This document shows, piece by piece, positions 35,226 to 63,697 of a stretch of 64,000 nucleotides of DNA (positions are counted from its first letter, which is position 1; every line of letters begins with the position of its first letter). The position numbers were made by a program, and so were the translations under genes. The stretch spans positions 28,378-92,377 of IMG/VR virus record IMGVR_UViG_3300023192_003818, one strand, 5' to 3'. The notes under the pieces were generated by a model, which saw only the letters and a program-made list of their open reading frames with translations, ran no database searches and was not told where the DNA came from. This DNA comes from a virus.

Positions 35226-35326
35226 TATCTATATTTTTAAAAATTTCATACCAGTGTAAACATAAATTTTCAGGTTTGTATCCTTCTGTAAATTTCTGCC
35301 TAAAATTATTATTAATTTTATATTTC

Positions 35327-37354: not shown

Positions 37355-37400
37355 ATTTTAAATATTTAACTTAATTCTTATTTAACAATTTCAGAAAAAA

Positions 37401-37928: not shown

Positions 37929-37946
37929 TTTTATTATTTATATTTA

Positions 37947-38249
37947 TTACTTTTTATCTATTTTTTTTATTAAATTATTCTCTGTGTGATTTATTTTGTT
38001 GTATTTATCTTGTTTTAAAGGACCAGCACCTCTGTTCATAATACCACCTCTATGAGACATACTATTAAATTTAAAATCAGTATATACTCCTGTTGCTTTG
38101 TAACTTAATGTATATATTTTATCATCTACTTTAAAATCAATGTCACCTCCAGTCTGTTCACATTGTTTTATATGTCTACCTTTTCTTTGTTTTTCTGTTA
38201 GGTAATTCTTTTTAATAAATGTTGCGTTTTCTTTAGTTATTTTGCTCAT
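37947..38249 (-). CDS. Hypothetical protein
   Basis: 100 aa ORF. Confidence 0.5.
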   Translation of the reverse strand: MSKITKENATFIKKNYLTEKQRKGRHIKQCEQTGGDIDFKVDDKIYTLSYKATGVYTDFKFNSMSHRGGIMNRGAGPLKQDKYNKINHTENNLIKKIDKK

Positions 38250-38264
38250 TTCTAAGTATTAATT

Positions 38265-38438
38265 TTAAAGTCCAAATAATGTCTTTACCCTGTTTTTAGT
38301 TGACATTTTCTCACTTTCATCTTTAACATGTTTAATAATTAAATTTTCCACCATTTTATTAATCTTTAACCCCTTATCATTACAATACTCTTTTAACATT
38401 GAATGAACTTCTTCTTTAATAATTAATGATTTTTTCAT
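38265..38438 (-). CDS. Small ribbon-helix-helix-like protein (57 aa)
   Basis: Hand-translated MKKSLIIKEEVHSMLKEYCNDKGLKINKMVENLI; ATATTTATA motif upstream. Confidence 0.55.
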   Translation of the reverse strand: MKKSLIIKEEVHSMLKEYCNDKGLKINKMVENLIIKHVKDESEKMSTKNRVKTLFGL

Positions 38439-38486
38439 TTTATTATAAATATAGGAAAGTATACAAAGATATACCTTCCTTTTATT

Positions 38487-46214: not shown

Positions 46215-46925
46215 TTATTCACATCTCACCAAATAATATTCTGATTCCATATTCTCATTACTAAAATTTAATTTCATAATACCTAAACTAGATATTTGAA
46301 TTAAGGCCTTATCTGCATCTTTATTTGCTGATAGAATTTCTTTAAATAAATCAGAATTGAATGGTAACTCTAAATTTTTATCTAATATTTCTCCTTCTAT
46401 TTGGTAAGTAACTTTATTAGAATAATTGTCATTAGCTCCAAAAGTAAATATACATAAATTATCTTGTGCCTTAACAATAAAATTATCTTGGTCTAATAAT
46501 GCATTTTTACCCTTAATTAGGTTATTAATATCACTTTCTTCTAAATTTAGGATTATATCATAACCTTCTTTAGGGTCTTTATAATAAGAAGTTGTACCCA
46601 AAACCAATACATCTGCTAATGAATATATTAAATCAAAATTGGCATCAGATATCTTTAATTTACTATAAATATTATGTTTTTTTATAGGGTCAAATAATAA
46701 GTCCCCCATAGTAATATTAATTAATTTTGATAATTTTTCAGTATCATAAATGCCAAGATCTGCATCTTCAAATGGAAAGTTATATAAATGAATTTTGCAT
46801 ACTTTCCCTTTACCCCCTGCATAGACTGTTAAAGTATTATCTTTAATTCTCCATTTTGTCTTTTCATTTAATCCCCCTAAATAATATTTAGATATAAAAG
46901 ATAATATTACATTTTTATTTACCAT
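46215..46925 (-). CDS. Sliding clamp (T4 gp45-like)
   Basis: 236 aa with clamp-like repeats (LGIYD..KL..L; F...FKEIL; G...L.F...Y...); directly after PolB. Confidence 0.75.
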   Translation of the reverse strand: MVNKNVILSFISKYYLGGLNEKTKWRIKDNTLTVYAGGKGKVCKIHLYNFPFEDADLGIYDTEKLSKLINITMGDLLFDPIKKHNIYSKLKISDANFDLIYSLADVLVLGTTSYYKDPKEGYDIILNLEESDINNLIKGKNALLDQDNFIVKAQDNLCIFTFGANDNYSNKVTYQIEGEILDKNLELPFNSDLFKEILSANKDADKALIQISSLGIMKLNFSNENMESEYYLVRCE

Positions 46926-46933
46926 AACTTATT

Positions 46934-47876
46934 TTATATTTCATAGATTTCAAAAACATCTATATGAGGGTTTAAGTTAAATTCCCACCCTATATCTTCC
47001 ATGAATCCTTCTAATTTATTTAATAATATACTCTCAAATACTTTTTTTCTATTAGCATATTTTTCAATAAAATCATTAATTTTATCAGGAATTTTATTAG
47101 ATATATAGGCTATTGATTCTACTTTGTAAGGATTATCATTTAAATAAATCCATTTAATCTTATCTGATGATGTAATATACGAATTTTGTTTATCTAATCC
47201 CCAAAATTTTAATAAATCATTGTATCTTATTGCTGCTTTAACGGAAGCTGATGCTTTTTTCTCAATATTAGTAAATATTTCTCCTGCTCTAGGTTTTCTG
47301 CCAGTATATTTTTTGAGTGTTTTAACTGATGTTGGGTTACCTAATTGTGTTAAAGGAATTTCACCCTTTATTATAGATTTTTTAAATACTTTAATTTGAC
47401 TTATAATCACTTCTTTTTCAACTCCTTTTAATACTTGTTTTAATATTTTTTCAAAAAATTTACCAAATACTGGGGGAAAATTAGATTTTTTAAATTCTAA
47501 TCCTTTAATGTCAACAAAATCTTTTTTAATAATACCATCTTGTTTAGTAATCCATTGAGCATATCTTCTAGTTTTTCTAAAATAAGCCGAACGGATAACA
47601 CATTCAGTTTTCATTTCTAATTTATGTGAATCAAGATTAAAACATTCTTTTGCTAATCTATCATAATCTTTAGTTATAATATCTTGGTATTGTAAAGCAA
47701 CATTTTCTAATACTTCATCTTTTTTTTTCTCACTAAAATTATCAAAATCTTTATATAAAAACTTTAATAAGGGTTCAGCATGAATATAGACTGAGTCGGT
47801 ATCACTAACAATAGGCAACGAAATTTTCGTCGCCTACTTTACATATAAATTCAGGAGTATCTTCCAGGTGTTTCAT
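46934..47876 (-). CDS. polB: Family B DNA polymerase, C-terminal subunit; motif C interrupted by a 4-nt insertion
   Basis: ATG at 47876 reads MKHLEDTPEFICKVGDENFVAYC*; DTDS, KxE, RRYA and KGLE follow in the +1 frame (track ORF 46934..47818, TTG start). Confidence 0.85.
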
Positions 47877-48261
47877 AAATTATTTTATTACTTTTATTTC
47901 TATTTCCAATATATCCAACTTCGTCTGTATTCTTTTTATCTTCTAATTTAGATTTATCCCAACCTCTTAATTCATAGTATTTTTCTTTAGGTTCACCAGT
48001 CCACCCATTTATTCCTTTCTTTGGCAAATAAAACAGGTGAATATAAATAGCAGGAAATCCGGATATTACCATTAATATCATGGCTATAGTTCGGTTAAAC
48101 AAAGCTGAAGCTCCAACTATAATAACTAAAATCAATATAAATTTACCAATTTTTCTAATTTTAGGTGTGTGCTCTTCAAAGTGTCCAAATAGTATGTTTC
48201 CTATTGAATAAATGATACTTACAATAGCAATTTCAAACCAAAACGATTCAATTGACCACAT
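47851..48261 (-). CDS. Membrane protein, bacterial-like
   Basis: Three TM helices; GHFEE.TP...; GINGWTGEPKEKYY. Confidence 0.65.
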   Translation of the reverse strand: MWSIESFWFEIAIVSIIYSIGNILFGHFEEHTPKIRKIGKFILILVIIVGASALFNRTIAMILMVISGFPAIYIHLFYLPKKGINGWTGEPKEKYYELRGWDKSKLEDKKNTDEVGYIGNRNKSNKIIYETPGRYS

Positions 48262-48266
48262 TTTTT

Positions 48267-48575
48267 TTATAATTTTTTCTTACTTAATTCTTCATTATCA
48301 TAATATTTTATGAATAATTCATATCCATCTTCCTCACATTTATTACAAGAATAACCTTTACTTACTGTATTTAATGCTTGGTCATAAACGTATAAATTTT
48401 CTAATTCTTCATTTTCTTCAGGAGTAAATTCAGTAGGATCTTTTTCTAAATTTTTAAACCAATCTTTTCTTCCCCATTTATCGATTAATATTTCCATTTT
48501 TTCTTGGGGGAAAATCATTGGTAAAAAGAGCCATTCATTATCTGTATTTTGTTCACAAAATTGACATTTATTCAT
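48267..48575 (-). CDS. CxxC...CxxC zinc-binding hypothetical protein
   Basis: CQFC and YDQALNTV...CNKC. Confidence 0.6.
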   Translation of the reverse strand: MNKCQFCEQNTDNEWLFLPMIFPQEKMEILIDKWGRKDWFKNLEKDPTEFTPEENEELENLYVYDQALNTVSKGYSCNKCEEDGYELFIKYYDNEELSKKKL

Positions 48576-48657
48576 TTTTTATATATTTTTAATTTCACAA
48601 TTCATATTATTCATCTTATTTCTCTCTTTTTTCTTATATTGAGGTACATATTTTTCT

Positions 48658-49050
48658 TTATTTAATTATACAATCTCTACACTCCCAACTTGGACCAACT
48701 GTATTTAAAAGTTGGTCATAAAAGTAAGCATTATCAACTTTTTTAGCTCCAAATTTTTCTTCTAATTTAGTTTGGATTTCTTCACTCCAATTATTATTAT
48801 TATTTTTCATTAAAACATCTTGATAATCTAAAATTTTATTTAATTCTTTATCTTTCATTCCAATATATTCACAGGCATCTATTCTTTCTTCAATCATTGC
48901 TCTAAAAATTTTAACTAATTTTTGCCCTTCAAAATTACCAACTAAAGGGTCTCCTTCTTTGCCAAAAGGTTTTAAATCATTAATATGAACTTGACATCTT
49001 TCACATTTTCTATCTGTTGGGGGTGGGTTAATATAAATTTTTTTAGTCAT
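48658..49050 (-). CDS. CxxC...CxxC zinc-binding hypothetical protein
   Basis: CERC and YDQLLNTV...CRDC. Confidence 0.6.
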   Translation of the reverse strand: MTKKIYINPPPTDRKCERCQVHINDLKPFGKEGDPLVGNFEGQKLVKIFRAMIEERIDACEYIGMKDKELNKILDYQDVLMKNNNNNWSEEIQTKLEEKFGAKKVDNAYFYDQLLNTVGPSWECRDCIIK

Positions 49051-49148
49051 AACTTATTTATTTTAAGGTTTTATAAAATTTTGTAAATTTCCAAATTTGA
49101 GTCCATACCCCACATTTTTCATTAAATCTTTTTTATTTAAATCCCCCA

Positions 49149-50906
49149 TTATATATTTAATTTTACTTTACCTTCACAGGGTAGAGATTTCATAAATTCT
49201 TCCTTAAATTTGGGGTCTTTCATAATTTTATTTATGTGATTATTTGCACATAATGCACTTTGTTGAATTATAGACCACCCTGTCAATGTAATGGCTTCAC
49301 TTAATATAGCTTTATTTTTTCCATATCTAAATGAAGGCAAAGAACTTGCCCCATACAAACTATTTAGTAAAATTTTAAATGAGTTTTGAATCATAAAATA
49401 ATGATCTCCTTTTTCCTCATCTCCTGCTTTATAAGCTTCTTTCATTAGTCTTTTATATTCAACTCTTTCGTTAAACCATTCTTCTAAAACTATAGCCATT
49501 ACTGATTTCTTATCGGTTCTAAACATAACTCCATTTGCAGATATTGATAATTTTTTACCTATAATAAATTTTATTAGACTAGAAACTTTCATTTTTACTC
49601 TTTTGTTTTGGTCGCTATTTTCAATAACTAATTCCTCATCAGGGTCTCTCTCTTTTAAATCATTAAGCCCCAATCTATTATTACGGTCATTATCATCAAT
49701 AATCCTAGCTACTAATGTTTCTCTTCCTATATTAAGAGAAATAATAATAAAAGGATATTGAGATGTTAAATCTTCATCAAACATATATTTATAAAGACCT
49801 GCTTTTGGGCAAAACAAATAACCTCCTGCATATCCTTTTTTTGATATTTGATTTCTTTCTCTTGCAGGAGGAATTATTCCTTGAGATAATAAATAAGCTG
49901 AAATAGCTCCATCATGTGTTTTACTACTTGCATAAACTTCACTATAATTATGTTTTCCTTTATGAGATATATTAATTGTTAAGTCTATATATTGTAATTT
50001 TTCATCCAATTTTTTTAATATTTCAACATCAATAAAATTATAATTAATAAATTTATGTATATCTTCTTTAAATAAATCATCAAGATTTCCATCATATTCA
50101 ATTTTACCTAATCCTGCATATTTTTTACCAATAGCATCTAAGGTATAGCTTGGTTCATCTCTCCAATAATATTTTTTATGTAATCTATAATAATCTAAAG
50201 ATTCAACCCCTGCGATTTGAACATAAGTGTCCTTATTGAACCACCAATCATTATTTTTTTTACATTTAACTATCCCAATTGGGGATAACATATTTGCCCA
50301 ATCTTCTCCTAATACATTACAAATTCTATAATATAGGTAAGGTATATCAAAAAAACAACCATTATAAGTAACTAAAATGTCAGGATCAATCTCTCTAAAT
50401 CTTTCAATAAATTTTGATAATAATTCTTCTTCATCTTTACAAGGTATAATCTCTTTATTTTTAAATTTGGTATATTTTAAATTTAATTGCGTATCCAAAA
50501 CCAAAATCCCCCATTTATCAAGTTGTTTATCCCACCATGCAATTGAAGTAATTTTTTTAGGGGCATTAGATATTTCAACTTCTGTAATCTCCTCTAGCAT
50601 TTCACACTCAATATCAAAAAATAATATTCTATGTGTAGTAGAAGGGGTACTATCTATCCCATATCTTTCAATTAGAAATTTCTGATATGGAGCCATATCA
50701 TGAAAATGTAATAAAGGATTTTGTTTATCCCATTTCCATATCTTTTTTAAATTTTCATCTTTAAACCCTTTAAATTCAGATTCTGAAGGAGAACATTCAA
50801 TATAAGCTTGATTATACCAAGTTATTTTTTTATAACTTTTATCAGTCCAAAGATGAATATTGAATTTATTCTTACCTATTTGTTCGGCAAAACATTTAAT
50901 ATACAA
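49149..50906 (-). CDS. polB: Family B DNA polymerase, N-terminal subunit (3'-5' exonuclease, motifs A and B)
   Basis: FDIEC (ExoI), YNG..FDIPY (ExoII), YN..D (ExoIII), DEDLTSQYP (motif A), QNSFKILLNSLYG (motif B); ends before motif C. TTG start. Confidence 0.92.
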   Translation of the reverse strand: MYIKCFAEQIGKNKFNIHLWTDKSYKKITWYNQAYIECSPSESEFKGFKDENLKKIWKWDKQNPLLHFHDMAPYQKFLIERYGIDSTPSTTHRILFFDIECEMLEEITEVEISNAPKKITSIAWWDKQLDKWGILVLDTQLNLKYTKFKNKEIIPCKDEEELLSKFIERFREIDPDILVTYNGCFFDIPYLYYRICNVLGEDWANMLSPIGIVKCKKNNDWWFNKDTYVQIAGVESLDYYRLHKKYYWRDEPSYTLDAIGKKYAGLGKIEYDGNLDDLFKEDIHKFINYNFIDVEILKKLDEKLQYIDLTINISHKGKHNYSEVYASSKTHDGAISAYLLSQGIIPPARERNQISKKGYAGGYLFCPKAGLYKYMFDEDLTSQYPFIIISLNIGRETLVARIIDDNDRNNRLGLNDLKERDPDEELVIENSDQNKRVKMKVSSLIKFIIGKKLSISANGVMFRTDKKSVMAIVLEEWFNERVEYKRLMKEAYKAGDEEKGDHYFMIQNSFKILLNSLYGASSLPSFRYGKNKAILSEAITLTGWSIIQQSALCANNHINKIMKDPKFKEEFMKSLPCEGKVKLNI

Positions 50907-51009
50907 AACCTTTTATTTTATTCATATTATTGTATCTTTTTTACTTCTATTTTTATTTAATGTTAAAGGTTGAGAATTTATATAATGAAAAAAAACTATG
51001 TTGCATAGG

Positions 51010-51645
51010 TTAAATAAAAGATAGAGGTTTATGGCAGTTTTGCAGTTCATTATTAGAAAAAAATTGAATTAAATCAGGTTTTACATATTCAATACTTTTC
51101 ATACTTTTCCTATCAGAACTTCTATATACTATCCATTTATCATTTACTTTTTCATAATGACATTTATGTCCTTTTTCTCTACTTCTAACTTCTACTGTTT
51201 TTTTAGCTATTTCTTCAGTATTACAAGATTTTGATAAATTTGAAAATTGAATTTCTTTATATATATTATTAAATTTATCTTTTAACCCATAAGCTAATAT
51301 TCCTGCACATAAAACATACATAATGTCCCCAAAAGCATCACTTATTTTAATTATATCATTATTTTCATATGCTTCTTTATATTCATCTATTTCCTCTAAA
51401 AGAAAATCATAAATAAATTTTTTCTCAAATTCAGGGATATCAAGGGTTGGAGTAGTGTTGTTTAACTTTCCAAAGACATCATTAAATTCTTCAACTTCTT
51501 CAACAAAAGGAACAATTTTTAAACATTTATCATGCGTTTTCTCAAAAGCTCGTTTTAAATCTCTTTTCAATTGAATTGTCGGTGTAATATAATGAGAAAT
51601 AATTTCTCCTACCTCATCATATAATTCTCTTAATTTTCTTAACAT
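51010..51645 (-). CDS. MazG-like / PRA-PH-like nucleoside triphosphate pyrophosphohydrolase
   Basis: VEEFNDVF, LLEEIDEY..A, ISDAFGDIMYV, EI..SNLSK, GK.MKS..Y.KP. Confidence 0.8.
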   Translation of the reverse strand: MLRKLRELYDEVGEIISHYITPTIQLKRDLKRAFEKTHDKCLKIVPFVEEVEEFNDVFGKLNNTTPTLDIPEFEKKFIYDFLLEEIDEYKEAYENNDIIKISDAFGDIMYVLCAGILAYGLKDKFNNIYKEIQFSNLSKSCNTEEIAKKTVEVRSREKGHKCHYEKVNDKWIVYRSSDRKSMKSIEYVKPDLIQFFSNNELQNCHKPLSFI

Positions 51646-51690
51646 TATCCTTCAAATTTATGTAAATATATTTTATTTATCTTTTAAATA

Positions 51691-52095
51691 TTACTTCTCA
51701 CTCAAATAATCAGCTACAGGTTCAGCATCTTGTCTCTCCCAAGGAAAGTAAATAAATTCATCTCCTTTATGTTCTTTTGCCCAAATTGAAGGAGTATAAT
51801 TTGAGGTATGTGGTTTAAAATACAAAGTAGCAGTATAGACACCTACTCCTTCCCTTAAGGTTTTCCCACTATCACAAATATCATCAATAACTAAAGTATT
51901 AGATGAAATAATATCAACATAAGGTAATCCTAGTTTATGGGAAACCATTACTGCTGGAATTAATCCTCCTCTTTTTATTCCCGTTACAGAAGTAATATAA
52001 GGAATATCTATTTTAATTTTTTCACATAAATTATTGACTAAGTCATTAATATCATCCCAACTAACTATTATTTTATTTTTAACTTTTAAAGACAT
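51691..52095 (-). CDS. Type I purine phosphoribosyltransferase (Gpt/Hpt-like)
   Basis: VTGIKRGGLIPAV, PRPP loop LVIDDICDSGKT, FPWE. Confidence 0.85.
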   Translation of the reverse strand: MSLKVKNKIIVSWDDINDLVNNLCEKIKIDIPYITSVTGIKRGGLIPAVMVSHKLGLPYVDIISSNTLVIDDICDSGKTLREGVGVYTATLYFKPHTSNYTPSIWAKEHKGDEFIYFPWERQDAEPVADYLSEK

Positions 52096-52238
52096 TATAC
52101 TTTATGTATTCCATTATTAATTTTTATATTTCTAAAATAAACCCCCCAGGGGTTTTTTAGGTATTTCTACAACAATTAATTCCATTTTGATATTATATGC
52201 ATTGAGCTCTATGGAAGAGACACAATTTATATAAAATT

Positions 52239-52874
52239 CTAACTTTTTTTAGCAATAGCATGCATAAATTCTTCTCTTACTAAATTACTAGGTTCCATAA
52301 ACTTCCCTGAAAAACTATTAGTTGTCATAACAGATTCAGGGTGTTTTACTCCTCTTAATCCACAACAAGTATGTTTAGCAGATATAGAAACAGCTATTGA
52401 ATTACATTTTAAATTTTTCTTTAAATAATTATGTATTTGTTGAGTTAAGGATTCTTGCATTTGGGGTCTTTTTGAAAACCATTCTACAACTCTATTAAGT
52501 TTTGATAAACCTATTACATATTCTCCTGGAATATAAGCAATTGAAGCTTGACCTATGAAAGGCATGCTATGATGTGCACAAAGGCTTGAGAGTCTTATTC
52601 CGGTTTGAATAACAACCCCAGCATAATTTTCATCATTAGGAAAAATAGTCATTTTAGGACTTTCAGAAACTGACCCAATAATTAAATCTTTTAACCATGC
52701 TTTAGCAACTCTATTGGGGGTTTCTATGGTTTGTCTATCAGCCATATAATCGAAACCAAGAGCATTTAAAAATTTTCCATAATGTTTTGAAGCCTTTTTA
52801 ATCATTTTATCTATTTCTTTTTCAGAACGAGGGATATTTCCATTTGCTTTTTTTATTAAATTTTTATTATTCAT
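52239..52874 (-). CDS. folE: GTP cyclohydrolase I
   Basis: TPNRVAK, SLCAHH, GLSKLNRVV, RPQMQE, HTC...RGV. Confidence 0.95.
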   Translation of the reverse strand: MNNKNLIKKANGNIPRSEKEIDKMIKKASKHYGKFLNALGFDYMADRQTIETPNRVAKAWLKDLIIGSVSESPKMTIFPNDENYAGVVIQTGIRLSSLCAHHSMPFIGQASIAYIPGEYVIGLSKLNRVVEWFSKRPQMQESLTQQIHNYLKKNLKCNSIAVSISAKHTCCGLRGVKHPESVMTTNSFSGKFMEPSNLVREEFMHAIAKKS

Positions 52875-52944
52875 ATATTTATTTATATTTTATTTTATTA
52901 AATTGTTTTTAAGTTTAATATACATAGGTGGGACAAATTCAAAA

Positions 52945-53784
52945 TCATACCCCACAAGTCTTATCCCACGCAGAAACGTGTAATCTTGTTAATCCTATGT
53001 AACCATATTTTTTGCCCATTTCTAAGCTAAATCTTGTTCTTTCATGAAAATCTTTTTGTGAATCTAATGCAGGCATTAATATAACACGGCGATAGGGAAT
53101 GTTAAAAGGTTTTATAAAATCTTCTTCAATTTCTTTCATATCCTCTTCAGTACTAATAACAAATTTAAACCAATAATTATCATGTTCCATAATTCGTTTC
53201 AAAGCTTTAGGTACAATTCTACGTTCTTTAGACATACCTGAGTTTGTTAACTTAACAGAACAATTGATTTGGTTTATATTATTAAAAAGTTCATCCTCTA
53301 TATAACCTGTCCCATTAGTTTCTATTTCATTATATAAATTTAGGTGATAAGGTTCCCCTATATTTTCTTGTTTAGCTATATTTAAATACCATTTTAGGAA
53401 ACTATTAATACCTTTTTGACTTATTGGTAATGTAGGTTCTCCTCCAGTCCAAATAATATTAATTCTTCCTTTATTAATCCATTCTTTAATTCCTTGTTCT
53501 TCCCAAGATTTAATTATGTCTTCAAAACTTAATTTAACACTTTTAATCCAAACTGGAATAGTATCACAAGTCCATGTGGCTTTACCTTCTTTATGTAAAT
53601 CTCCTACAAAATTTCCAGGTTCATGAACTTCTATACCTTTTTTCATGTTTCGTATCATTTTATCTGATACTCCACAAGATAAATTACAATTCATTAATCT
53701 AATAAAATATGCAGGGTAACCTGTTGTATGTCCTTCACACTGAACTGAGTAAAAATGTTCACTAACATTTAATGTTTCATTCAT
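52945..53784 (-). CDS. queE: 7-carboxy-7-deazaguanine synthase (radical SAM)
   Basis: SEHFYSVQCEG, FIRL..CNLSC...CDT, TGGEPT, IETNGT, SVKL.NSG, FKFV, RLHV..W. Confidence 0.9.
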   Translation of the reverse strand: MNETLNVSEHFYSVQCEGHTTGYPAYFIRLMNCNLSCGVSDKMIRNMKKGIEVHEPGNFVGDLHKEGKATWTCDTIPVWIKSVKLSFEDIIKSWEEQGIKEWINKGRINIIWTGGEPTLPISQKGINSFLKWYLNIAKQENIGEPYHLNLYNEIETNGTGYIEDELFNNINQINCSVKLTNSGMSKERRIVPKALKRIMEHDNYWFKFVISTEEDMKEIEEDFIKPFNIPYRRVILMPALDSQKDFHERTRFSLEMGKKYGYIGLTRLHVSAWDKTCGV

Positions 53785-53915
53785 AATTTCTTAATATTTC
53801 TCTAATTTTAAGAGTTTGTTCTTCAATATAATCAGGTTCCATAGTAGTACTACAACATATTTCAATTTCCGCATCTATTTCATCAAGTAATTTTAATATA
53901 TTCTCTCTATCTTTT

Positions 53916-54164
53916 TTATACATTAAATCTCCTTAATTGATAAATGTAAAAATATTTTATAAATAATGAAAATAATAACCCAAATACAAAACAACTTAAA
54001 GTTAGTTTCCACCACCAAGTAACAAACCATATTAAAATTGCAGAAGTAATAGCCCCTAAAACCCATAACATTTCTAAAATTAATACCATTATATAAAAAT
54101 ATGGATATTTTTTATCTATATGATTTTCAAATAATATAACTTCCTGTTTTTTAGTTAGTTTCAT
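53916..54164 (-). CDS. Small membrane protein
   Basis: Two hydrophobic helices. Confidence 0.55.
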   Translation of the reverse strand: MKLTKKQEVILFENHIDKKYPYFYIMVLILEMLWVLGAITSAILIWFVTWWWKLTLSCFVFGLLFSLFIKYFYIYQLRRFNV

Positions 54165-54168
54165 AACT

Positions 54169-54633
54169 TTATTCTATATAAATTCCTGAATTTCTTTTAT
54201 TTTCATTGCATTCTACTTTCACTACTTTTATTCTTCCTCCTTCAGTTTTACTAAAAACATCATTAAATTTATCAAATACTAATTTAGCAGTTGCTTCTGC
54301 TCCTACTTTATCTAAAACTATTAATTTTAATAAACCTAATTCTTCCATCATCTCAAAAGATTCTAATTGAGGATCATCTTTTTCAATTATAGTGGTATGG
54401 TCAAACATAGTATTTAACCATTCTTTTAAACCATTTCTACTAAATAGGCCAAAATCAACAATCCAGTTCATTTCATCTAATTGATTTTTTTCAATTTCTT
54501 CAATAGATTCGAACCATACTTTAAATTCAAAGGCATAACCATGAAGTAATTGACAATGAGAATGCTTTGCTTTCCATTGTCTTATGGCAACAGAATAGTT
54601 ATCAAATATTTTTGTGGATTGGTATTTACCCAT
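54169..54633 (-). CDS. queD: 6-carboxy-5,6,7,8-tetrahydropterin synthase
   Basis: C.LLHGY, IVDFG, FDH, AE..A, E. Confidence 0.9.
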   Translation of the reverse strand: MGKYQSTKIFDNYSVAIRQWKAKHSHCQLLHGYAFEFKVWFESIEEIEKNQLDEMNWIVDFGLFSRNGLKEWLNTMFDHTTIIEKDDPQLESFEMMEELGLLKLIVLDKVGAEATAKLVFDKFNDVFSKTEGGRIKVVKVECNENKRNSGIYIE

Positions 54634-54694
54634 TAATTATTTTTTTTTACTAAATCTCCATCCCAAGAAGGAGCAAATTGGTTTAATACTTTTA

Positions 54695-54940
54695 TTATCC
54701 ATTATAAAAACTTAAAATGGTTGGTTTTGATTGTATTCCTGATAATCTACCTATTACCTTATTGTCCTCTAATAAAATGAGAGTAGGTATGCTTCTAATT
54801 TGATATGCATTTAATAAAGGACCATTTGTATCAGCATCTATTTTTTGGTAATTAATATGACCTTTTAAGGACTCCATTATTGGGGAAAGAGTTTTACAGG
54901 GAACACACCATGAAGAACTGAAATATAATATTTTTTTCAT
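54695..54940 (-). CDS. Thioredoxin-like protein
   Basis: WCVPC; IRSIPT. Confidence 0.9.
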   Translation of the reverse strand: MKKILYFSSSWCVPCKTLSPIMESLKGHINYQKIDADTNGPLLNAYQIRSIPTLILLEDNKVIGRLSGIQSKPTILSFYNG

Positions 54941-54983
54941 TTTTAAGTTTATGTATTATGGTTGATATAATATAATAAAATTT

Positions 54984-55223
54984 TTATAATATTCCAACCA
55001 ATTGTTGAAATCTTTTAAATAAGTTTGGGGGTTTTAACTTCATTAATTCATATAACATTTTTACACGTTTTGGGGTAATAGATACTCTTTTACATTTAAC
55101 CCACCTTTCATTTCCTACATTTCTAAAATATAATTGATTTTTATAATACCCCCATTCATTAAGCCCACCATGATGGGGGTCTATTATAGTTTTTTTATTT
55201 GATATTGTAGAATTTAAAGGCAT
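54984..55223 (-). CDS. Hypothetical protein
   Basis: 79 aa ORF. Confidence 0.5.
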   Translation of the reverse strand: MPLNSTISNKKTIIDPHHGGLNEWGYYKNQLYFRNVGNERWVKCKRVSITPKRVKMLYELMKLKPPNLFKRFQQLVGIL

Positions 55224-55957
55224 TTATTTTTTTTTTCACTTGGGTAATAATTTTTAACAAAATTACTTTGCCAATATTCTTCAGTATCTACATCCATTAT
55301 AGTTAGTTTTCCAAACCATCCTGCTCCTGAATCTATATTCCATAAATTACCATATTTTTCAGGTAAAGCACTTGTAGTAGCAGTATGTCCTATAAATACT
55401 TTGTTAAACATTTTAGTTCCTTTAAAAGGGTTTTGAGATTTAGCCCCAGATTTAGCGCCTTCTAATAGACTTCTGTCCCATTGACATTCTTTAGATATTG
55501 TACCTTCATTTATCTTGTATAAAGCACTTACAGGAAATTCATCTTCTCTATAAGCCCACCCCCCATGAATAAAGATATTATTATCTTCATCAATGTAAAA
55601 ATTAACAAGATCTTTAAAGAAATCTCTATGTTCTTGATTTAAAGTATACCCGGTTTTAATATAAGAATTAATAGTAGCTTGACCTCCTTGTTGAGTCCAA
55701 TTAAAAGGGGTTATTCCTGTATGTAAATAGTCATAACACCAAACATCATGATTACCTAAAATTGTAACCAATCTATCTCCCATTGTTTTTTTAAGTTCAA
55801 TAAGACATTGGATTAGTTCAGCACTTTCAGACCAACCATCTACATAATCTCCTATTAAAACTAATTTATCTTTATGAATATCAATTGGAGAAAGAGTCAT
55901 TAATTCTTCAAAGGCTTTTAATCCTCCATGAATATCCCCCATTACATATTTTTTCAT
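55214..55957 (-). CDS. Calcineurin-like metallophosphoesterase
   Basis: GDIHG, GDYVD, GNHD, FIHGG, GHT, DSG. Confidence 0.9.
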   Translation of the reverse strand: MKKYVMGDIHGGLKAFEELMTLSPIDIHKDKLVLIGDYVDGWSESAELIQCLIELKKTMGDRLVTILGNHDVWCYDYLHTGITPFNWTQQGGQATINSYIKTGYTLNQEHRDFFKDLVNFYIDEDNNIFIHGGWAYREDEFPVSALYKINEGTISKECQWDRSLLEGAKSGAKSQNPFKGTKMFNKVFIGHTATTSALPEKYGNLWNIDSGAGWFGKLTIMDVDTEEYWQSNFVKNYYPSEKKNKCL

Positions 55958-56646
55958 TATTCTACAATTATTTTAAATGATTTCTCTACAATTTCTCTAG
56001 GACCTATATCGGTATTAAAGGTGGTTTTTATAAATATCTGCAAAGTATCACCAACCATCTCATTATCTAAATATATTTGTTGTCTAGGTTCATAATTATA
56101 TTTACTATATGTGCCTAATAGTATTTCTGCGTATGGACATTCCCAACAAAAGTGTTTTTGAATTTGATATCCAGCAATATTTAAAGGAGACATGATCTGT
56201 ACTATATCTGATAGAGTATATTCAATCTCTCCTATTGGAATTGGGGTATTATATTCACCATCCGTAAACCAACTTAATACTGAGTATGTAGGTACAATAA
56301 ATCTTAAATTTTCCAATGCTATCCAATAATCAGAATCATACTGTGTCTCAATTAATGGTACTCCATTAATTACAGCATTAACTTCGTCTAATTCACCTCT
56401 AATAGTAAAATATCTAAGACCATAATAAAAAATATGCCAATACCCATTAATATCTTTATAAGCATCGGGTTGTACTAGTTCATCTATATAAAATTGAGTA
56501 TTGCAACTACCATCTACACAAGCGGGCCCCATTTTCTCTTCTTGACTACAAGCCCAGAAGAGGCTTATTAAAATTATGCAACTTATCTTTCTCATTATGA
56601 TGAGAATTCTAAAGTTAAAAATAGTTTTTTCATATTTCATTTTCAT
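55957..56646 (-). CDS. Putative lipoprotein
   Basis: Likely start MRKISCIILISLFWAC (lipobox-like). Confidence 0.55.
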   Translation of the reverse strand: MKMKYEKTIFNFRILIIMRKISCIILISLFWACSQEEKMGPACVDGSCNTQFYIDELVQPDAYKDINGYWHIFYYGLRYFTIRGELDEVNAVINGVPLIETQYDSDYWIALENLRFIVPTYSVLSWFTDGEYNTPIPIGEIEYTLSDIVQIMSPLNIAGYQIQKHFCWECPYAEILLGTYSKYNYEPRQQIYLDNEMVGDTLQIFIKTTFNTDIGPREIVEKSFKIIVE

Positions 56647-56888
56647 TAATTTATATATATAACTTCTCCTTGTTTATTTTCTAGTAATTGAACTTCATAT
56701 TCAATATCTAACCTTTTTAATATTTCATTCATATTTTCTTGTAAGTAAATTTGAAATAATTGAGTAAAGATTTCAAAGGGTAAAAATGTATTTTGTTTTG
56801 TAGTATTGAATTTTTCTTGGTAATATTTATAAAACCAATTTAAATCAAAGTGGTTTAATTTTCTCATTTGCAAATATTTTTCTCTCAT
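56646..56888 (-). CDS. Hypothetical protein
   Basis: 80 aa; follows the promoter copy at 56914. Confidence 0.6.
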   Translation of the reverse strand: MREKYLQMRKLNHFDLNWFYKYYQEKFNTTKQNTFLPFEIFTQLFQIYLQENMNEILKRLDIEYEVQLLENKQGEVIYIN

Positions 56889-56913
56889 GGCCTTTATTGA
56901 CTTTAATTATTAT

Positions 56914-56963
56914 AATTAAATATAACGAAGGCTCCCTCAGAGATCCTAGCATTTTTGTGGTTG
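56914..56963 (-). promoter_or_regulatory. Repeated promoter motif (copy 8)
   Basis: Plus strand AATATAACGAAGGCTCCCTCAGAGATCCTAG. Confidence 0.65.
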
Positions 56964-57305
56964 TTTTAAAACTTCTCTCCAAGTATTTTTAAATAATTCC
57001 ATATTAAATTTATTTTATCTTTTCTTTGAGAATTTTTATTTCTTTTTCTATTCTAATTTTATCTTTTTTAGATAACTCTACCTTTTCATCAAGGGTTTTC
57101 TTTTTTGTTTTCACTCCACTTTTAAGTTGGGATTTTAATTGATTTAAAGCTCTTCCTTTTCTGCTTCTTTGTGGTACAGTCATAAAATTAATTTTAATTA
57201 TTAGAGGGAGAATAATCTGTGAATTTGGGAATCTCTACTTCCCAAGTTTTTTTATCAAAATTTATATTATTATTTTTAATGATTTTATATTTCATATAAT
57301 TTATT

Positions 57306-57848
57306 TTAAGGTTTCCACCATCCTTGTGCTTTATTTTTCATTGTATCAAATAATTCATTCCATTCATTTTGTTCTAATTCTTCAGATCTTTTAAAAACTT
57401 TATCAGAGTGTTTTTTTTCTTTTTTAGTTCTACCATCTACCCATTCATAAAGTTTTTCACCCTTATCATCTTTCTCCTTTAATTCTTTAAAATCCATACC
57501 CCCAAATACAATTTCACCTAATTCTTTTTCGGCAAAGGATAAATAAGGAGATTTATACAGATTTTCTATTATTTGAATTACACGTTTTATATCATTTTCC
57601 TTTGGCATTCTACCTTTATCAACTTCATAATTTGGAAAGGTTAAATAAACTTCTAACCCACGTTTTAATAATAATAAATTATAAGTATAATCCCATCCTC
57701 TATATTTCCATATTACCCAAAAAAACCTTCTTAAATTTTTTATTCCGTATTTAAAATTATACCAAATATCAGATAAGGTAAACCCTGCTCCCATTTCAGA
57801 TAATCCGAAGGTTAATTTATTTATTATTTTTTGTGTATCGTAATTCAT
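57306..57848 (-). CDS. Hypothetical protein
   Basis: 180 aa ORF ending in QGWW. Confidence 0.65.
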   Translation of the reverse strand: MNYDTQKIINKLTFGLSEMGAGFTLSDIWYNFKYGIKNLRRFFWVIWKYRGWDYTYNLLLLKRGLEVYLTFPNYEVDKGRMPKENDIKRVIQIIENLYKSPYLSFAEKELGEIVFGGMDFKELKEKDDKGEKLYEWVDGRTKKEKKHSDKVFKRSEELEQNEWNELFDTMKNKAQGWWKP

Positions 57849-58066
57849 TACATTAATTCTTTAAATATTATTAATACTTCTGCTAATGCAAATAAAGCAA
57901 AACATACTTGTAATTCTCCAAATAGCCCAAACCCACATGCTAAGATCCTAATTCCTGGTTTAACTAAACTAACATATAGATGTTTATTTTGGTTAGGTAA
58001 AAAATCTTTTCCTTCACTTAATTGAACTCTATATTTTTTGGGTAATTTTGGTATTTTATTTTTCAT
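57848..58066 (-). CDS. Small hypothetical membrane protein
   Basis: C-terminal hydrophobic segment. Confidence 0.5.
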   Translation of the reverse strand: MKNKIPKLPKKYRVQLSEGKDFLPNQNKHLYVSLVKPGIRILACGFGLFGELQVCFALFALAEVLIIFKELM

Positions 58067-58086
58067 ATTCTTGTATTGTTATATTA

Positions 58087-58932
58087 TTATTTACCGTGTT
58101 GTGCAAGCATTTGTTTTACGTGTGCTTCTGCTACTTCGTAAGCAACCACTCCAGTTTCATCCTCATAAACCACAGGATCTTTTCTCCCCAAAGCAATAAA
58201 TGCCTCGATGCGTTCAACCGAAGAAGCTGATTTGTAATCACTATTACCTGAAGGGTAAGGTTTATATGAGGTATTTGTTCTTTTATAAATCTCATCGAAA
58301 TTAAGACCCAATTCTTCACATAATACTTCTCCATCTTGTAAAATTGTAAATTTATTACCCTCAATATAAGGGGTAAAATAACCAACTCGTTCAGCATTCC
58401 AATTTCCTGCTCTAAAAGCGGCTTCATCTGCATCTCTAAATTCTTGTCTGCAATCAGGATAAACTTCGAAATCCCCAGCGTGCACTCCTAAAGCAATATT
58501 ACAAGTTTCTTCTGTTCTATTTGCTATTGATAATGCTACTGCCTGTGCAATTGAACTGAAGATTTTATTTCTATTAGGTACAACAGTCTCTCGCATGTTT
58601 TTATCTTCATAATGTCCTTCAGGAACTTCATCTCCACCTTCTATTAAATTTGAATTTAATAAAGAAGATAAACCCTTTAATTGGATGATTTGATGTCTAA
58701 TAGGAAAATATCCTGGTTTCTTACCATCTTCTTGATGTTTGTTTATATATAACAATAAATTTAAATAATCAACTAATTCAGTTGCTCTTTCTAACTCTAC
58801 CTTATGTTTTTGACCATAATCAAAACTTAATGCTGTTACTTTATAGCCTTTTTCTAATAAATGTAATAGTAAAGTACTTGAGTCTAGCCCTCCCGAGAGT
58901 GAAAGTACGCAATATTTGTTATTATTTTTCAT
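58087..58932 (-). CDS. queC: 7-cyano-7-deazaguanine (preQ0) synthase
   Basis: SLSGGLDS, FDYGQKH..E, VPNRN, YPDCR.EF. Confidence 0.92.
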   Translation of the reverse strand: MKNNNKYCVLSLSGGLDSSTLLLHLLEKGYKVTALSFDYGQKHKVELERATELVDYLNLLLYINKHQEDGKKPGYFPIRHQIIQLKGLSSLLNSNLIEGGDEVPEGHYEDKNMRETVVPNRNKIFSSIAQAVALSIANRTEETCNIALGVHAGDFEVYPDCRQEFRDADEAAFRAGNWNAERVGYFTPYIEGNKFTILQDGEVLCEELGLNFDEIYKRTNTSYKPYPSGNSDYKSASSVERIEAFIALGRKDPVVYEDETGVVAYEVAEAHVKQMLAQHGK

Positions 58933-59059
58933 ATTTATTTGCTTTTTTTAATTTATGTCAAAACTTATACATTGAACTTCATACTCTTTTGATAGTAATT
59001 TTAATAGTAAATTACTCGAATCTAACTCCCCTAAATGGGAAAGAATCGCATATTTTTGT

Positions 59060-59290
59060 TTAACCATTTCCTAATATTATTATTTTTTTATTTTTGGTTT
59101 TCTCTATGCTTCTATATAAATTTTCAGTTCTCATTTGTGCTTCAAATCTAGTATTCATCATATCAGTAATAAATTCTTCTACTTTATTCATGTCATCTCT
59201 TGTGATATTATCTTTAAATAGTTTTCCATCATAGAATCCATCTACTATTGCTTTTGCTTCTTGTTTAAATGCTTTAAATTTTTTACTCAT
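59060..59290 (-). CDS. Hypothetical protein
   Basis: 76 aa ORF. Confidence 0.55.
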   Translation of the reverse strand: MSKKFKAFKQEAKAIVDGFYDGKLFKDNITRDDMNKVEEFITDMMNTRFEAQMRTENLYRSIEKTKNKKIIILGNG

Positions 59291-59301
59291 TTCTTTTTTT
59301 T

Positions 59302-59631
59302 TTAATTTATATCAAACCATGTACTCTCTTGTGTTTCAAAATCAATCCACACCCATTCTTTTTTTGCTTTATTTTCATCTCCCCCATTATATTTATTAAT
59401 CCATAACCACCTTTCCCATAACTCATCTGTACCTTTTTCCCCTCTCCATTCAAAACTTAACCATTCAATTGTAAACCATGGAACTCTTTCACATATAGGG
59501 GCACCAAATTTATCTTTCCACATAGGGATAGATAAAGAGTAAGATTTATCAAAATGTGGTAAACAAAAAAACCTATAATTGTCTTTTCTAAAATAATACT
59601 CCCATTTGGGGTTTGATTTAAAACTTTTCAT
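59302..59631 (-). CDS. Trp-rich hypothetical protein
   Basis: 109 aa ORF. Confidence 0.55.
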   Translation of the reverse strand: MKSFKSNPKWEYYFRKDNYRFFCLPHFDKSYSLSIPMWKDKFGAPICERVPWFTIEWLSFEWRGEKGTDELWERWLWINKYNGGDENKAKKEWVWIDFETQESTWFDIN

Positions 59632-59819
59632 TTTTCTTTTAATGCAATATTTTCTTTATGTAAATAATAAATGTTAAACTCCTTTATATCTGCATAAGGC
59701 TGTTTGGAACCTTTAATAGTTGGATGATTTAATAAAATTTCAAATCCTTCCAAATGCCCCATCTCATCTTCTAAAAAATCTATAAAGTCTTTAGTTTTCT
59801 CTAATATTTTCTTATCCAT
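59628..59819 (-). CDS. Hypothetical protein
   Basis: 63 aa ORF. Confidence 0.45.
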   Translation of the reverse strand: MDKKILEKTKDFIDFLEDEMGHLEGFEILLNHPTIKGSKQPYADIKEFNIYYLHKENIALKEK

Positions 59820-60091
59820 TTTTAATTAATTTAAATTTTGCTTCAGGGTAATCACCTTTTTTTGCCATCCATTCAAGAATTATTAAATCATCTTTAGTAA
59901 TAAAACCCCTATTACTTATCAACTTTTGGGCCCATTTTATTACTTCTTTTTCGTGGCTTGTCCCACATAAACTTTCGTGTGCCATAATTTATATTTATTT
60001 TTTTAAATTGTTTTCCTTTTTTTATATTATCCCCCATTTTTAAGGGTTATAGATTGGATAAAGCATTTATTATGTGGGTATGATTTTTTTT

Positions 60092-60883
60092 TCAAGATAA
60101 TAATTTTTTAAAAAACTTAACATTATAATATAATAATTCTTTACCCTTTAATTCTTTATCTATAAAATCTTCAATTTTATTTGTAGGTTTTATGTATATA
60201 TTATTTAAATTTAATTTAATTCCTTTATATGAATTAATAATAGGTAAACTAGTATCTAATGAATTTATAAAACCAAAAAATTTGTTATTATAAAATTTAA
60301 ATTCATCTAAACTAGATGCCCCTAATAAATGTATATAATCTCCCTCTTGAATAATTCCTTCCTTTTTTAATTTTGAAATCAAATTAACTCTTCCTATAGC
60401 CCTATTTATTAAAATATCAGGATGATGAAATTCGGTTTGATATACAATGGAAGAATGGTTAAAAGAAAAATGTTTATAACCTAAATCTTTACATAAAATA
60501 TATAAATTTTTAATTTCATTATAAGTTTTACCTTGTAAAACTACCATTAATTTAACATCCTTAGGTAAAGAAGATTTAATAACTTTAATCCAATATTTAG
60601 CATTTTTATATCCTTCTATTGGGTCATCCCATTTATCAGGAACTATAAAAATGTCAGGTTTTATTAAATTTATTTTTTCTATTAATTCTTTTTGTGTATA
60701 TTTTTCCTCCTCAAATAAACCATTATCCAAAATAATAAAAGAATTTTCTTTTTTTCTATAATTTAGAAAAAATTCCTCATATTTTGGGTAATTATCCATT
60801 AAAGTAGGTAAACAAAATTGATAATCATTAAATTCTCTACTTTTTTCTAATAAACATAAAGGCACTTCATGGCTTAATTCCAT
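60092..60883 (-). CDS. dpdA: TGT/DpdA-like TIM-barrel, putative 7-deazaguanine transglycosylase
   Basis: IILDNG, VPD, VVLQG, IHLLG, SLDTS follow the TGT-fold motif order; no CxCxxC Zn site; upstream of queC. Confidence 0.6.
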   Translation of the reverse strand: MELSHEVPLCLLEKSREFNDYQFCLPTLMDNYPKYEEFFLNYRKKENSFIILDNGLFEEEKYTQKELIEKINLIKPDIFIVPDKWDDPIEGYKNAKYWIKVIKSSLPKDVKLMVVLQGKTYNEIKNLYILCKDLGYKHFSFNHSSIVYQTEFHHPDILINRAIGRVNLISKLKKEGIIQEGDYIHLLGASSLDEFKFYNNKFFGFINSLDTSLPIINSYKGIKLNLNNIYIKPTNKIEDFIDKELKGKELLYYNVKFFKKLLS

Positions 60884-60885
60884 TA

Positions 60886-61374
60886 TTAAAATTCTTTAAA
60901 ATTTTTTAATGTTTTTGAATAATAATTATTACACATAATATAATAAAATTTTTCTATATTTCCACTAAATTCTAACATTTCTTTTTCTACTTGTTCAATA
61001 TTTATATTAAAATTTTTACTAAACCCTTGAATTAATTTACTTAATTTATCTTTTTCATCTTTTTCAAAATCAATCATTAATTTATTTCTCCTAGTTCTTA
61101 AAATTCCTATCTTTTCATTGATTTTAAAAATATTAGGGTAATATTCTTCATAAATTTTATTTATTTCATGTTCTATTAATTGAGCTTGGTAAATATAATG
61201 GGAATAATCAAAATCTCCATTCTTAATTTTGTCTATTAAAGGTTGTTTTTTACCTAAAGGTTTATTTGGGTCTTTCCACCCTCTCCACCACCAAAATCTA
61301 TTATAACTTAAAGGTTTTAATTTTGAAAGTTTTCTTTTAAGTTGTTTTATTGACAAGGGTGGATTATAAATCAT
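60886..61374 (-). CDS. Hypothetical protein
   Basis: 162 aa ORF. Confidence 0.6.
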   Translation of the reverse strand: MIYNPPLSIKQLKRKLSKLKPLSYNRFWWWRGWKDPNKPLGKKQPLIDKIKNGDFDYSHYIYQAQLIEHEINKIYEEYYPNIFKINEKIGILRTRRNKLMIDFEKDEKDKLSKLIQGFSKNFNINIEQVEKEMLEFSGNIEKFYYIMCNNYYSKTLKNFKEF

Positions 61375-62605: not shown

Positions 62606-63697
62606 TTAATATCTTTTGGTAAGTTCGTCTTCTAATTTTTTTAACCTTTGTAGTTCTTTAAGCTTACGAGCTGACCAAGTACCTTGTTTCATTTTATTTT
62701 CTAAATTAATTATTTCTTGGTGGGGGTCTGCATCTTTTATTAAAATTTTATTTGGTGATGGGAGACTTTCATCTAAATCTTCTTCATTTATATTCTTTAA
62801 ATATGTAGATTTTATTTCTATCGGTGATTTTACAGGTAAATAAACCTCATCAATTTTACCCGACTTCTTTTTTATTTTATTTATGTTTAATTCTTTTTTT
62901 TTGAAATTTTGATTAAAAGCAAAATTAGTTGCAACTACTAATGCTATTGCTAAAGGGTCAAATACAAATATAATAACAATTAATAACCAATTTATTATCT
63001 CATTCATGGGTTTATCTAATAATTCAGATAAATATTTTAAAGGCCCCAATTCTCCTGCTATTTCTGTATTATTTTGTTTTTCTAATATCTTTAATTGGTA
63101 TTTTTGAAGACTATCAGAAGCTATACTTCTTTTGGATTGTGCTTTATTTCTGTTTTCTTCTTCAACATTTATTCTATCTCTTGCTAATCTTAATTCAATT
63201 GTTGATATTGTATTTCTTAAACCTGTAGATGATGTAGTATCTTTAACTTGTATTGATGATGCTTTTGCATTAGATAATGTAGAGATGTTGTTAGATATCC
63301 TTTCTAATTCATTTTCATATCTTATAACATCATCAGCATAAAATTTTTCTTTTTGTTCTAAGAATTTTATTTCATTTTCATTAATGGAGAGTTTAATATA
63401 TGTGTCTTGATATCCCTTACTAAGCATTCCATAGATTCCTACTGATGTGATGAGAGATAATACAATTACTGAAATTGTTAAATATAATCTAAAACCTTTA
63501 TTTATTTTATTCCAATATTGATATAATAAACTTGTGGTTACAAGTTTTGAAAGTTCTAAAAAACTAGACATTATTATTATAGCAGTAGCTACTCCAGCAA
63601 ATAATTTACTTAATCCTATTATACTGTAATATGCAGCACAACCTGCTAAACCTAAAGCACAAAAAGCTATTAAATAAGGTAAAAATTTATTTATCAT
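62606..63697 (-). CDS. Membrane protein with coiled coil (DUF4407-like)
   Basis: Three N-terminal TM helices, long coiled coil, ELGPLKY, IIFVFDPLAIALV. Confidence 0.65.
   Translation of the reverse strand: MINKFLPYLIAFCALGLAGCAAYYSIIGLSKLFAGVATAIIIMSSFLELSKLVTTSLLYQYWNKINKGFRLYLTISVIVLSLITSVGIYGMLSKGYQDTYIKLSINENEIKFLEQKEKFYADDVIRYENELERISNNISTLSNAKASSIQVKDTTSSTGLRNTISTIELRLARDRINVEEENRNKAQSKRSIASDSLQKYQLKILEKQNNTEIAGELGPLKYLSELLDKPMNEIINWLLIVIIFVFDPLAIALVVATNFAFNQNFKKKELNINKIKKKSGKIDEVYLPVKSPIEIKSTYLKNINEEDLDESLPSPNKILIKDADPHQEIINLENKMKQGTWSARKLKELQRLKKLEDELTKRY

Follow-up and report, generated by a model that had tools for sequence, protein, structure and literature searches.

Complete replacement of deoxyguanosine (dG) by a 7-deazaguanine nucleoside has been described in phages encoding DpdA3, a divergent subfamily of the DNA-modifying DpdA transglycosylases whose founding members are gp056 of Campylobacter phage CP220 and a protein of Flavobacterium phage immuto (PMC10516641, Hutinet 2023). 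According to that paper, no dG was left in any of the three DpdA3 phages examined (CP220, Cellulophaga phage phiST and immuto), with dADG as the modified base of CP220. Cellulophaga phage phiST was found to carry dDG at 302,000 per 10^6 nucleotides and immuto fdPreQ1 at 345,000 per 10^6 nucleotides, and insertion was judged to be post-replicative (PMC10516641). Here we describe a related locus from an uncultured virus, IMG/VR record IMGVR_UViG_3300023192_003818 (106.6 kb, estimated to be about 65% complete), in which we analysed a window of 64,000 nucleotides (positions 28,378 to 92,377 of the record). The locus combines a DpdA3-type gene with preQ0 synthesis genes, a phosphoribosyltransferase (PRTase), a MazG-like pyrophosphohydrolase and a split family B DNA polymerase. 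It represents an uncultured addition to the published DpdA3 kind, and one that probably gives DNA fully substituted with dPreQ0.

The window has a GC content of about 26%, and by open reading frame (ORF) calls all module genes lie on its minus strand, as do all features given below with window coordinates. A preliminary description, made from the DNA letters, had named the genes of the module and their order; family, tblastn and structure searches confirmed both. It had also mentioned that some phages of Bacteroidota with a divergent DpdA replace nearly all of their G, and these proved to be the DpdA3 phages (PMC10516641). The phage itself is uncultured, of low GC and related to immuto, and its module sits within the replication gene block. 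Similarity to immuto throughout (PRTase, MazG and GroES/EL), a Bacteroidota-like lipoprotein-type ORF and the low GC point to a Bacteroidota host.

The gene at 60092..60883 encodes a protein of 263 amino acids with a barrel of the tRNA-guanine transglycosylase (TGT) fold and no zinc subdomain. It had no sequence match in Pfam, NCBIfam or PDB. In tblastn searches it matched the immuto protein annotated as 'DpdA' (E 3e-26, 30% identity) and CP220 gp056 (5e-19, 34% identity), in both cases over more than 90% of its length. An AlphaFold2 (AF2) model built from an alignment of 35 relatives reached a predicted local distance difference test score (pLDDT) of 93. The top PDB matches in Foldseek were without exception TGTs, the best being a bacterial TGT (probability 1.0, E 7e-8, template modelling (TM) score 0.6-0.67). 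Residues D53-N54, D83, Q117, HLLG185-188 and D210-T-S were invariant in the 35 sequences, and the conserved motifs (DN, PD, Q, HLLG, DTS) were equated with TGT catalytic residues by motif order only. Profile comparison with the canonical DpdA of Stenotrophomonas phage Bhz54 (hhalign) gave no similarity, so the link from DpdA3 to the TGTs rests on the fold. Judged by these sequence matches and the modelled structure, the 263-amino-acid protein is assigned to the published DpdA3 subfamily.

Genes for the supply of a 7-deazaguanine base follow. At the level of families the preQ0 pathway is complete, with FolE, QueD, QueE and QueC all recognised by Pfam, PHROG and NCBIfam searches. FolE (GTP cyclohydrolase I, 52239..52874) scored 1.4e-50 in Pfam and 5e-51 against NCBIfam FolE. 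QueD (6-carboxytetrahydropterin synthase, 54169..54633; PTPS 2e-12, PHROG QueD 1e-32) fell under the NCBIfam equivalog cutoff, and QueE (radical-SAM 7-carboxy-7-deazaguanine synthase, 52945..53784; PHROG 2076, 1.5e-41) matched NCBIfam QueE models under their cutoffs. The QueC (7-cyano-7-deazaguanine synthase-like, 281 amino acids, 58087..58932) matched PF06508 at 3e-38 and TIGR00364 at 1.4e-36, the latter under the model cutoff. Its PP-loop SGGLDS is present, and its C-terminal part has no CxxC-type Cys cluster. Canonical QueC has a C-terminal Cys (zinc) cluster, and the window protein may belong to a zinc-less QueC lineage.

This QueC is 64.5% identical to that of immuto, which must supply preQ0 to QueF, and preQ0 is therefore the most likely base here. 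A hidden Markov model (HMM) search of the whole 106.6-kb record, at its estimated 65% completeness, found no QueF, DpdN, Tmk-like kinase, ribonucleotide reductase (RNR) or HD-domain protein. Given the presence of FolE, QueD, QueE and QueC, and with QueF and DpdN not found in the record, the predicted DNA base is dPreQ0. By analogy with the analysed DpdA3 phages, we infer that virion DNA probably carries dPreQ0 at nearly all G, an expectation that concerns the final base as well as the extent of replacement.

The gene order of the module is conserved in relatives. An IMG/VR scan with the DpdA3 alignment returned 162 viral contigs, 80 of which entered a locus comparison with HMMs built for this analysis; 30 of these loci span QueE to the polymerase. 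The conserved order across the 80 loci was (DnaB, FEN) – RNR – f6 – u162 – DpdA3 – QueC – thioredoxin – QueD – QueE – PRTase/FolE – MazG – PolB – clamp – GroES/EL, where f6 and u162 are conserved proteins described below. Since the same order recurs in 80 viral contigs of the 162 matches, it is not due to chance. In most of the 80 loci, as in the window, the genes for QueC, QueD, QueE and FolE are located downstream of DpdA3. A test set beforehand, whether PRTase and MazG genes are linked to Que genes in relatives, was passed: among the 30 spanning loci the PRTase was present in 23, FolE in 27 and MazG in 27. The family as a whole is large: a full HMMER search with a threshold of E<=1e-3 collected 4,522 DpdA3 clusters, and 510 passed the stricter E<=1e-30.

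With the described DpdA3 phages (immuto, phiST and CP220; PMC10516641) the locus shares the divergent DpdA subfamily, at 30-34% identity, and the FolE/QueD/QueE core. It has further genes in common with immuto, namely QueC (64%), a Gpt-like PRTase (56% identical to gp59), MazG (53% identical to gp62) and GroES/EL. It differs from immuto in that QueF and DpdN were not found and in having a split PolB where immuto has PolA, from phiST in having no DpdL, and from CP220 in having no HD or Tmk neighbours. The predicted product, dPreQ0, has not been reported at full replacement. Canonical DpdA1/DpdA2 phages and bacterial DpdA systems, which modify post-replicatively and reach no more than 30% of G, use the same preQ0 supply and likewise an exchange enzyme of the TGT superfamily, and some of them also carry a PRTase (see Bhz54 below). 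Compared with these enzymes, DpdA3 is shorter (263 amino acids), lacks profile similarity to the DpdA of Bhz54 and is associated with complete replacement.

Among metagenomic relatives of DpdA3, P0037 and P0091 (447 amino acids) were fused at their C-terminus to a DpdN-type formyltransferase, and the two activities thus probably share a substrate. The DpdA3 fusion partners found in metagenomes were limited to the DpdN formyltransferase, homing-endonuclease domains and DUF3310; no fusion to a kinase, MazG or PRTase was seen. DpdA3 of CP220 is flanked by a Tmk-like gene on one side and by the gene of an HD-domain/P-loop protein on the other.

The gene following folE encodes a compact 6-oxopurine PRTase of the Gpt/XGPRT-like type (51691..52095, 134 amino acids) that passed the Pfam cutoff barely. 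Its nearest solved structures were all of Gpt type: GpT-1 of S. solfataricus (4trb, 5e-9), 1vdm of P. horikoshii (1e-7) and E. coli XGPRT (1e-4). The best NCBIfam model was xanthine PRTase NF006613 (1.9e-15), at 56.8 bits against an equivalog cutoff of 138 bits, and because of this shortfall a substrate can be suggested rather than assigned. The phosphoribosyl pyrophosphate (PRPP) motif DDxxDSGxT (DDICDSGKT) and a C-terminal FPWE were present, and the alignment showed that the enzyme keeps the Lys, the Trp of FPWE and, in DDxxD, the third Asp; the Asp that contacts purine N7 is among the retained residues. The enzyme has the PRPP motif of cellular Gpt (XGPRT) and Hpt but is shorter, lacking a long segment found in the Hpt-like, phiST and MaInes members.

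The distribution of this gene was informative. PRTase and FolE genes lay within 150 nucleotides of each other in 22 of 27 loci. In the 34 PRTase-bearing loci the slot beside folE was filled either by a Gpt-like enzyme of about 135 amino acids (15 loci, mostly downstream of folE) or by a true, full-length Hpt of about 167 amino acids, which matched Hpt structures at E 4.5e-33 and preceded folE in each of its 19 loci. Phosphoribosylation of guanine and hypoxanthine is common to the Gpt-like and Hpt families. Seven of the 30 spanning loci had no PRTase, and a search of their unlabelled ORFs revealed no hidden one, which makes the enzyme an accessory rather than an obligatory step. Likewise, neither a hidden PRTase nor a hidden hydrolase was found when the PRTase-less loci and the lineages of loci L084-L088 were searched, and a search of GenBank phages gave no match to the window PRTase family in CP220. 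Two unassigned ORFs were seen in these loci: one of 165 amino acids between FolE and MazG in a PRTase-less relative (L020:16956-17453), with a weak P-loop kinase-like match (AAA_18, E 0.0065), and a DCD/dUTPase-like ORF in L088.

Among GenBank phages the window PRTase family matched only 18 records, and the four groups examined (immuto, the phiST group, MaInes, and the Stenotrophomonas/Pseudomonas siphophages that include Bhz54) all carry 7-deazaguanine genes. In Brevundimonas phage MaInes, folE adjoins the PRTase gene, and queC, queD and queE lie past the polymerase and RNR genes; MaInes had been considered as a case of FolE and PRTase without Que genes, and was dropped when the rest of the genome showed QueC, QueD and QueE. 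In Bhz54, a single polypeptide (L009:6926-7819) combines a Gpt-like PRTase domain (residues 3-120) with FolE (137-295). It is annotated only as a GTP cyclohydrolase and adjoins queE, queC, queD and a canonical TGT-like DpdA. By tblastn, related phages of Stenotrophomonas and Pseudomonas show the same PRTase segment inside what is annotated as folE. The independent recruitment of two salvage families, the fusion to FolE and the dispensability of the gene favour their shared activity, the conversion of guanine or hypoxanthine with PRPP to the nucleoside monophosphate. The distribution is more in keeping with a role in guanine salvage than with an enzyme needed in every case to make a 7-deazaguanine nucleotide.

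Between the PRTase and polymerase genes lies an all-alpha NTP pyrophosphohydrolase of the MazG-like type (51010..51645, 211 amino acids) with N- and C-terminal extensions. It matched PRA-PH PF01503 at 3.5e-9 (37.4 bits against a cutoff of 21.3) and PHROG 671 at 1.2e-19, and acidic stretches of the forms EExxE and DxxxD are visible in its sequence. Only immuto and two uncultured giant phages showed the longest similarities (61-70% of the query), and the giant phage examined had no Que genes within 12 kb of its MazG. Matches restricted to the core occurred in Maribacter, Tenacibaculum and Microbacterium phages. Neither the Maribacter nor the Tenacibaculum group appears among the listed DpdA3 matches or in the QueC host counts as listed, and in Maribacter phage Molly and Tenacibaculum phage JQ the neighbours of MazG are unrelated early genes. 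Since homologues of its core are also present in phages that lack Que genes, we regard MazG as a usual component of the replication block in this clade and not as specific to the pathway.

We favour, with a probability of roughly 55%, a post-replicative exchange by DpdA3 that is accompanied by PRTase-driven recycling of guanine. As homology suggests, GTP would be converted to preQ0 through FolE, QueD, QueE and QueC, and DpdA3 would then swap guanine for preQ0 at essentially every G, as in the three characterised DpdA3 phages; the substrate would most simply be newly made phage DNA. Each exchange would free one guanine, which the Gpt-like PRTase would most likely convert with PRPP to GMP. In TGT enzymes guanine competes with the incoming 7-deazaguanine. 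The PRTase would remove this competitor and at the same time refill the GTP pool used by FolE (guanine to GMP to GTP to FolE), and the MazG-like protein would serve as the nucleotide-pool pyrophosphohydrolase of the replication block.

Several observations weigh against this reading. To our knowledge, proven post-replicative DpdA enzymes reach at most 30% of G, and replacement at 100% is far higher. The substrate of the PRTase is not readable from its sequence. A PRTase that uses a 7-deazaguanine does exist, namely TubE of the tubercidin pathway, which is specific for 7-carboxy-7-deazaguanine (CDG) (PMC6112128), and a nucleotide-forming role of this kind is therefore chemically possible. Attempts to demonstrate DpdA3 activity in E. 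coli failed (PMC10516641). A Tmk-like kinase gene adjoins DpdA3 in CP220, immuto and L085-L087 (listed at L001:15478-16002 and L002:14819-15361), and nucleotide hydrolase genes lie in or beside the DpdA3/Que cluster in four lineages: a MazG-like gene in the present locus and another in immuto, a dUTPase/MazG-like gene in phiST and an HD gene in CP220. These kinases and hydrolases are possible nucleotide-level partners and constitute the best circumstantial support for a nucleotide-level route.

On such a route, complete G replacement in DpdA3 phages would come about in the nucleotide pool, with a 7-deaza-dGTP analogue arising by exchange on dGMP supplied by MazG or through the PRTase and then being used by the polymerase. 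We consider this unlikely, and retain a pre-replicative scheme only because DpdA3 activity has never been demonstrated. Its form with DpdA3 as the maker of the nucleotide seems quite improbable: MazG would convert dGTP to dGMP, DpdA3 would swap the base on the free nucleotide, the PRTase would recycle the guanine, a kinase would restore the triphosphate and PolB would incorporate it, in a functional analogue of the MazZ/PurZ/DatZ/DpoZ system. Such a sequence of steps would explain complete replacement, account for the hydrolases and the Tmk-like kinases beside DpdA3, and fit both the loss of the TGT zinc subdomain and the failed E. coli assays. However, HMM searches found no Tmk-like kinase in the record or in window-type loci, MazG is missing from 3 of the 30 loci and its core family extends to phages that have no Que genes, and we know of no characterised TGT or DpdA that acts on anything other than a polynucleotide. 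The DpdA3-DpdN fusions are neutral in this respect. Least probable of all the explanations weighed here is the form in which the PRTase joins preQ0 (or CDG/ADG) to PRPP, host kinases and RNR turn the resulting 7-deaza-GMP analogue into a dNTP, MazG removes dGTP and PolB incorporates the analogue. Besides the TubE precedent, it draws on the tight linkage of PRTase, MazG and PolB with the Que genes, on an overlap of 8 nucleotides between the PRTase and MazG genes in several loci (longest-ORF calls), and on the 100% replacement and cytoplasmic ADG nucleoside reported for DpdA3 phages (PMC10516641). It would, however, leave an invariant and apparently catalytically intact DpdA3 without a role. It also requires a PRTase that is missing from seven spanning loci and CP220, that is replaced by another ordinary salvage family or fused to FolE beside a canonical DpdA, and that keeps the Asp presumed to contact purine N7, and the kinase and RNR steps have no counterpart found in the record. 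The preliminary description had proposed this PRTase, MazG and PolB scheme. The gene linkage on which it was built proved strong; the enzyme roles did not find support, since the two ordinary families, the FolE fusion with a canonical DpdA and the slot left empty in 7 of 30 loci speak against the PRTase as a maker of 7-deazaguanine nucleotides, MazG has core homologues in phages that lack Que genes, and neither a nucleotide kinase nor an RNR was found in the record.

The PRTase and MazG could instead be general nucleotide-metabolism auxiliaries that lie near the Que genes by inherited synteny and have no specific role in modification. The window clade and immuto are related (QueC 64%, PRTase 56% and MazG 53% identity), so that much of the co-occurrence of PRTase and MazG is not independent, and the MazG core homologues amid unrelated early genes in Maribacter and Tenacibaculum phages agree with such a view. 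For the PRTase this explanation is difficult to reconcile with the 7-deazaguanine genes in all four examined groups among the 18 records, with its fusion to FolE in one lineage and with the independent recruitment of two families beside folE; we rate it as decidedly unlikely overall.

Comparison with two other systems helps to place the locus. The Z-genome system (PurZ/MazZ/DatZ/DpoZ) likewise sets a MazG-family enzyme and a phage polymerase beside base-synthesis genes, and complete replacement of one base is again seen in related phages. Here, in contrast, the sole candidate for making a modified (d)NMP would be the PRTase, whose distribution argues for ordinary guanine salvage; a dedicated kinase or triphosphohydrolase was not found in the record; and a base-exchange enzyme, DpdA3, is present that the Z system does not need. 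The tubercidin and toyocamycin clusters (TubE/ToyH) similarly place FolE, QueD and QueE beside a purine-type PRTase and a nucleotide hydrolase. Those clusters belong to bacterial secondary metabolism and lack DpdA, and TubE has 194 amino acids, against 134 in the Gpt-like phage enzyme.

The polymerase is encoded in two pieces. PolB-N (49149..50906) contains the exonuclease domain and polymerase motifs A and B (Pfam DNA_pol_B_exo1 and DNA_pol_B), and PolB-C (46934..47818, or 46934..47876 including a frame break; PHROG 262, 2.8e-40) contains motif C (SDTDS) at the gene start, followed by the thumb. At the break (47798-47876), the frame opened by the ATG at 47876 ends in ...FVAYC TAG TGA and DTDS lies in another frame; relative to the uninterrupted ...AY(S/V)DTDS... 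of relatives, four nucleotides are inserted directly before motif C. This may be an assembly error, a real lesion or a case of recoding. Relatives have either a one-piece PolB (832-909 amino acids) or one split just upstream of motif C. Some T4-like phages likewise have a split family B polymerase, gp43. Three small ORFs lie between the two genes (47851..49050; 130, 102 and 136 amino acids), with no Pfam or PHROG match; the loci of relatives have no homologues of them, and Rfam revealed no intron. The next gene encodes a sliding clamp of the gp45/PCNA type (46215..46925, 236 amino acids, no Pfam match), which follows PolB in 16 loci and whose Atlas structure gave TM scores of 0.84 to PCNA and 0.78 to the gp45 family.

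Several neighbours of the module are also conserved. At its upstream edge, f6 (62606..63697, 363 amino acids, no Pfam match) has homologues between RNR and DpdA3 in 50 of the 80 loci. The helical protein u162 (60886..61374, 162 amino acids) lies upstream of DpdA3 in 57 of the 80; its AF2 model is all-helical (pLDDT 92), residues F/W/W/R are invariant, and the family consensus ends in an AT-hook-like tail, KRGRPKK. It had no match in Pfam, PHROG or NCBIfam, and a fold search gave no PDB match. A small ORF following QueC (f14, 57848..58066) had phmmer matches in 20 loci. The thioredoxin-family protein just upstream of queD (54695..54940) belongs to a family of 59 ORFs (f5) whose representative matched Pfam Thioredoxin at 3.7e-18. 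It was found in 55 loci, usually right before queD and sometimes again before the PRTase (e.g., L010:12321-12569), and it may supply reducing power to RNR or to one of the enzymes of the pathway. A NinI-like metallophosphoesterase (55214..55957; Pfam Metallophos 5e-12, PHROG 246 2.5e-47) had no homologue in the 80 loci and is an insertion specific to this genome, outside the conserved module.

Farther away, the window contains a run of at least five GT2 and GT4 glycosyltransferase genes (30861-39419), with locally higher GC near 30-32 kb; possible targets of these enzymes are DNA and the surface sugars of the host. Outside the window, the replication block of the record includes an ORF of 769 amino acids (C1:93188-95497; L004:1189-3498) without a Pfam match, which sits roughly at the position of RNR in relatives and does not match the RNR profile. 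Atlas look-ups of ORFs of 229 and 180 amino acids returned only hypothetical Bacteroidota or viral clusters. The whole region had no megablast match among GenBank phages. An Rfam scan of the window found tRNA-Met only; neither a preQ1 riboswitch nor a group I intron within PolB was seen. Sigma-70 promoter and terminator scans gave site numbers not above those of shuffled sequence and thus carry no information.

Apart from those with DpdA3, no phages are known in which a 7-deazaguanine takes the place of every guanine, and the enzyme that would achieve this has never been reconstituted. The clade to which the present locus belongs is large and uncultured, with 162 or more viral contigs and, at E<=1e-30, 510 DpdA3 clusters, and it carries the module between replication genes and the polymerase gene. 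The 6-oxopurine PRTase that recurs next to folE, in two families and one fusion, is not mentioned in PMC10516641, and we found no discussion of it in the literature searched. It suggests a helper step, which we did not find described in print, in which released guanine is removed and recycled; this step may let the exchange run to completion. Phage DNA fully substituted with dPreQ0, as predicted here and not previously reported, would bear on the evasion of restriction and CRISPR systems as well as on the sequencing and enzymatic handling of such genomes.

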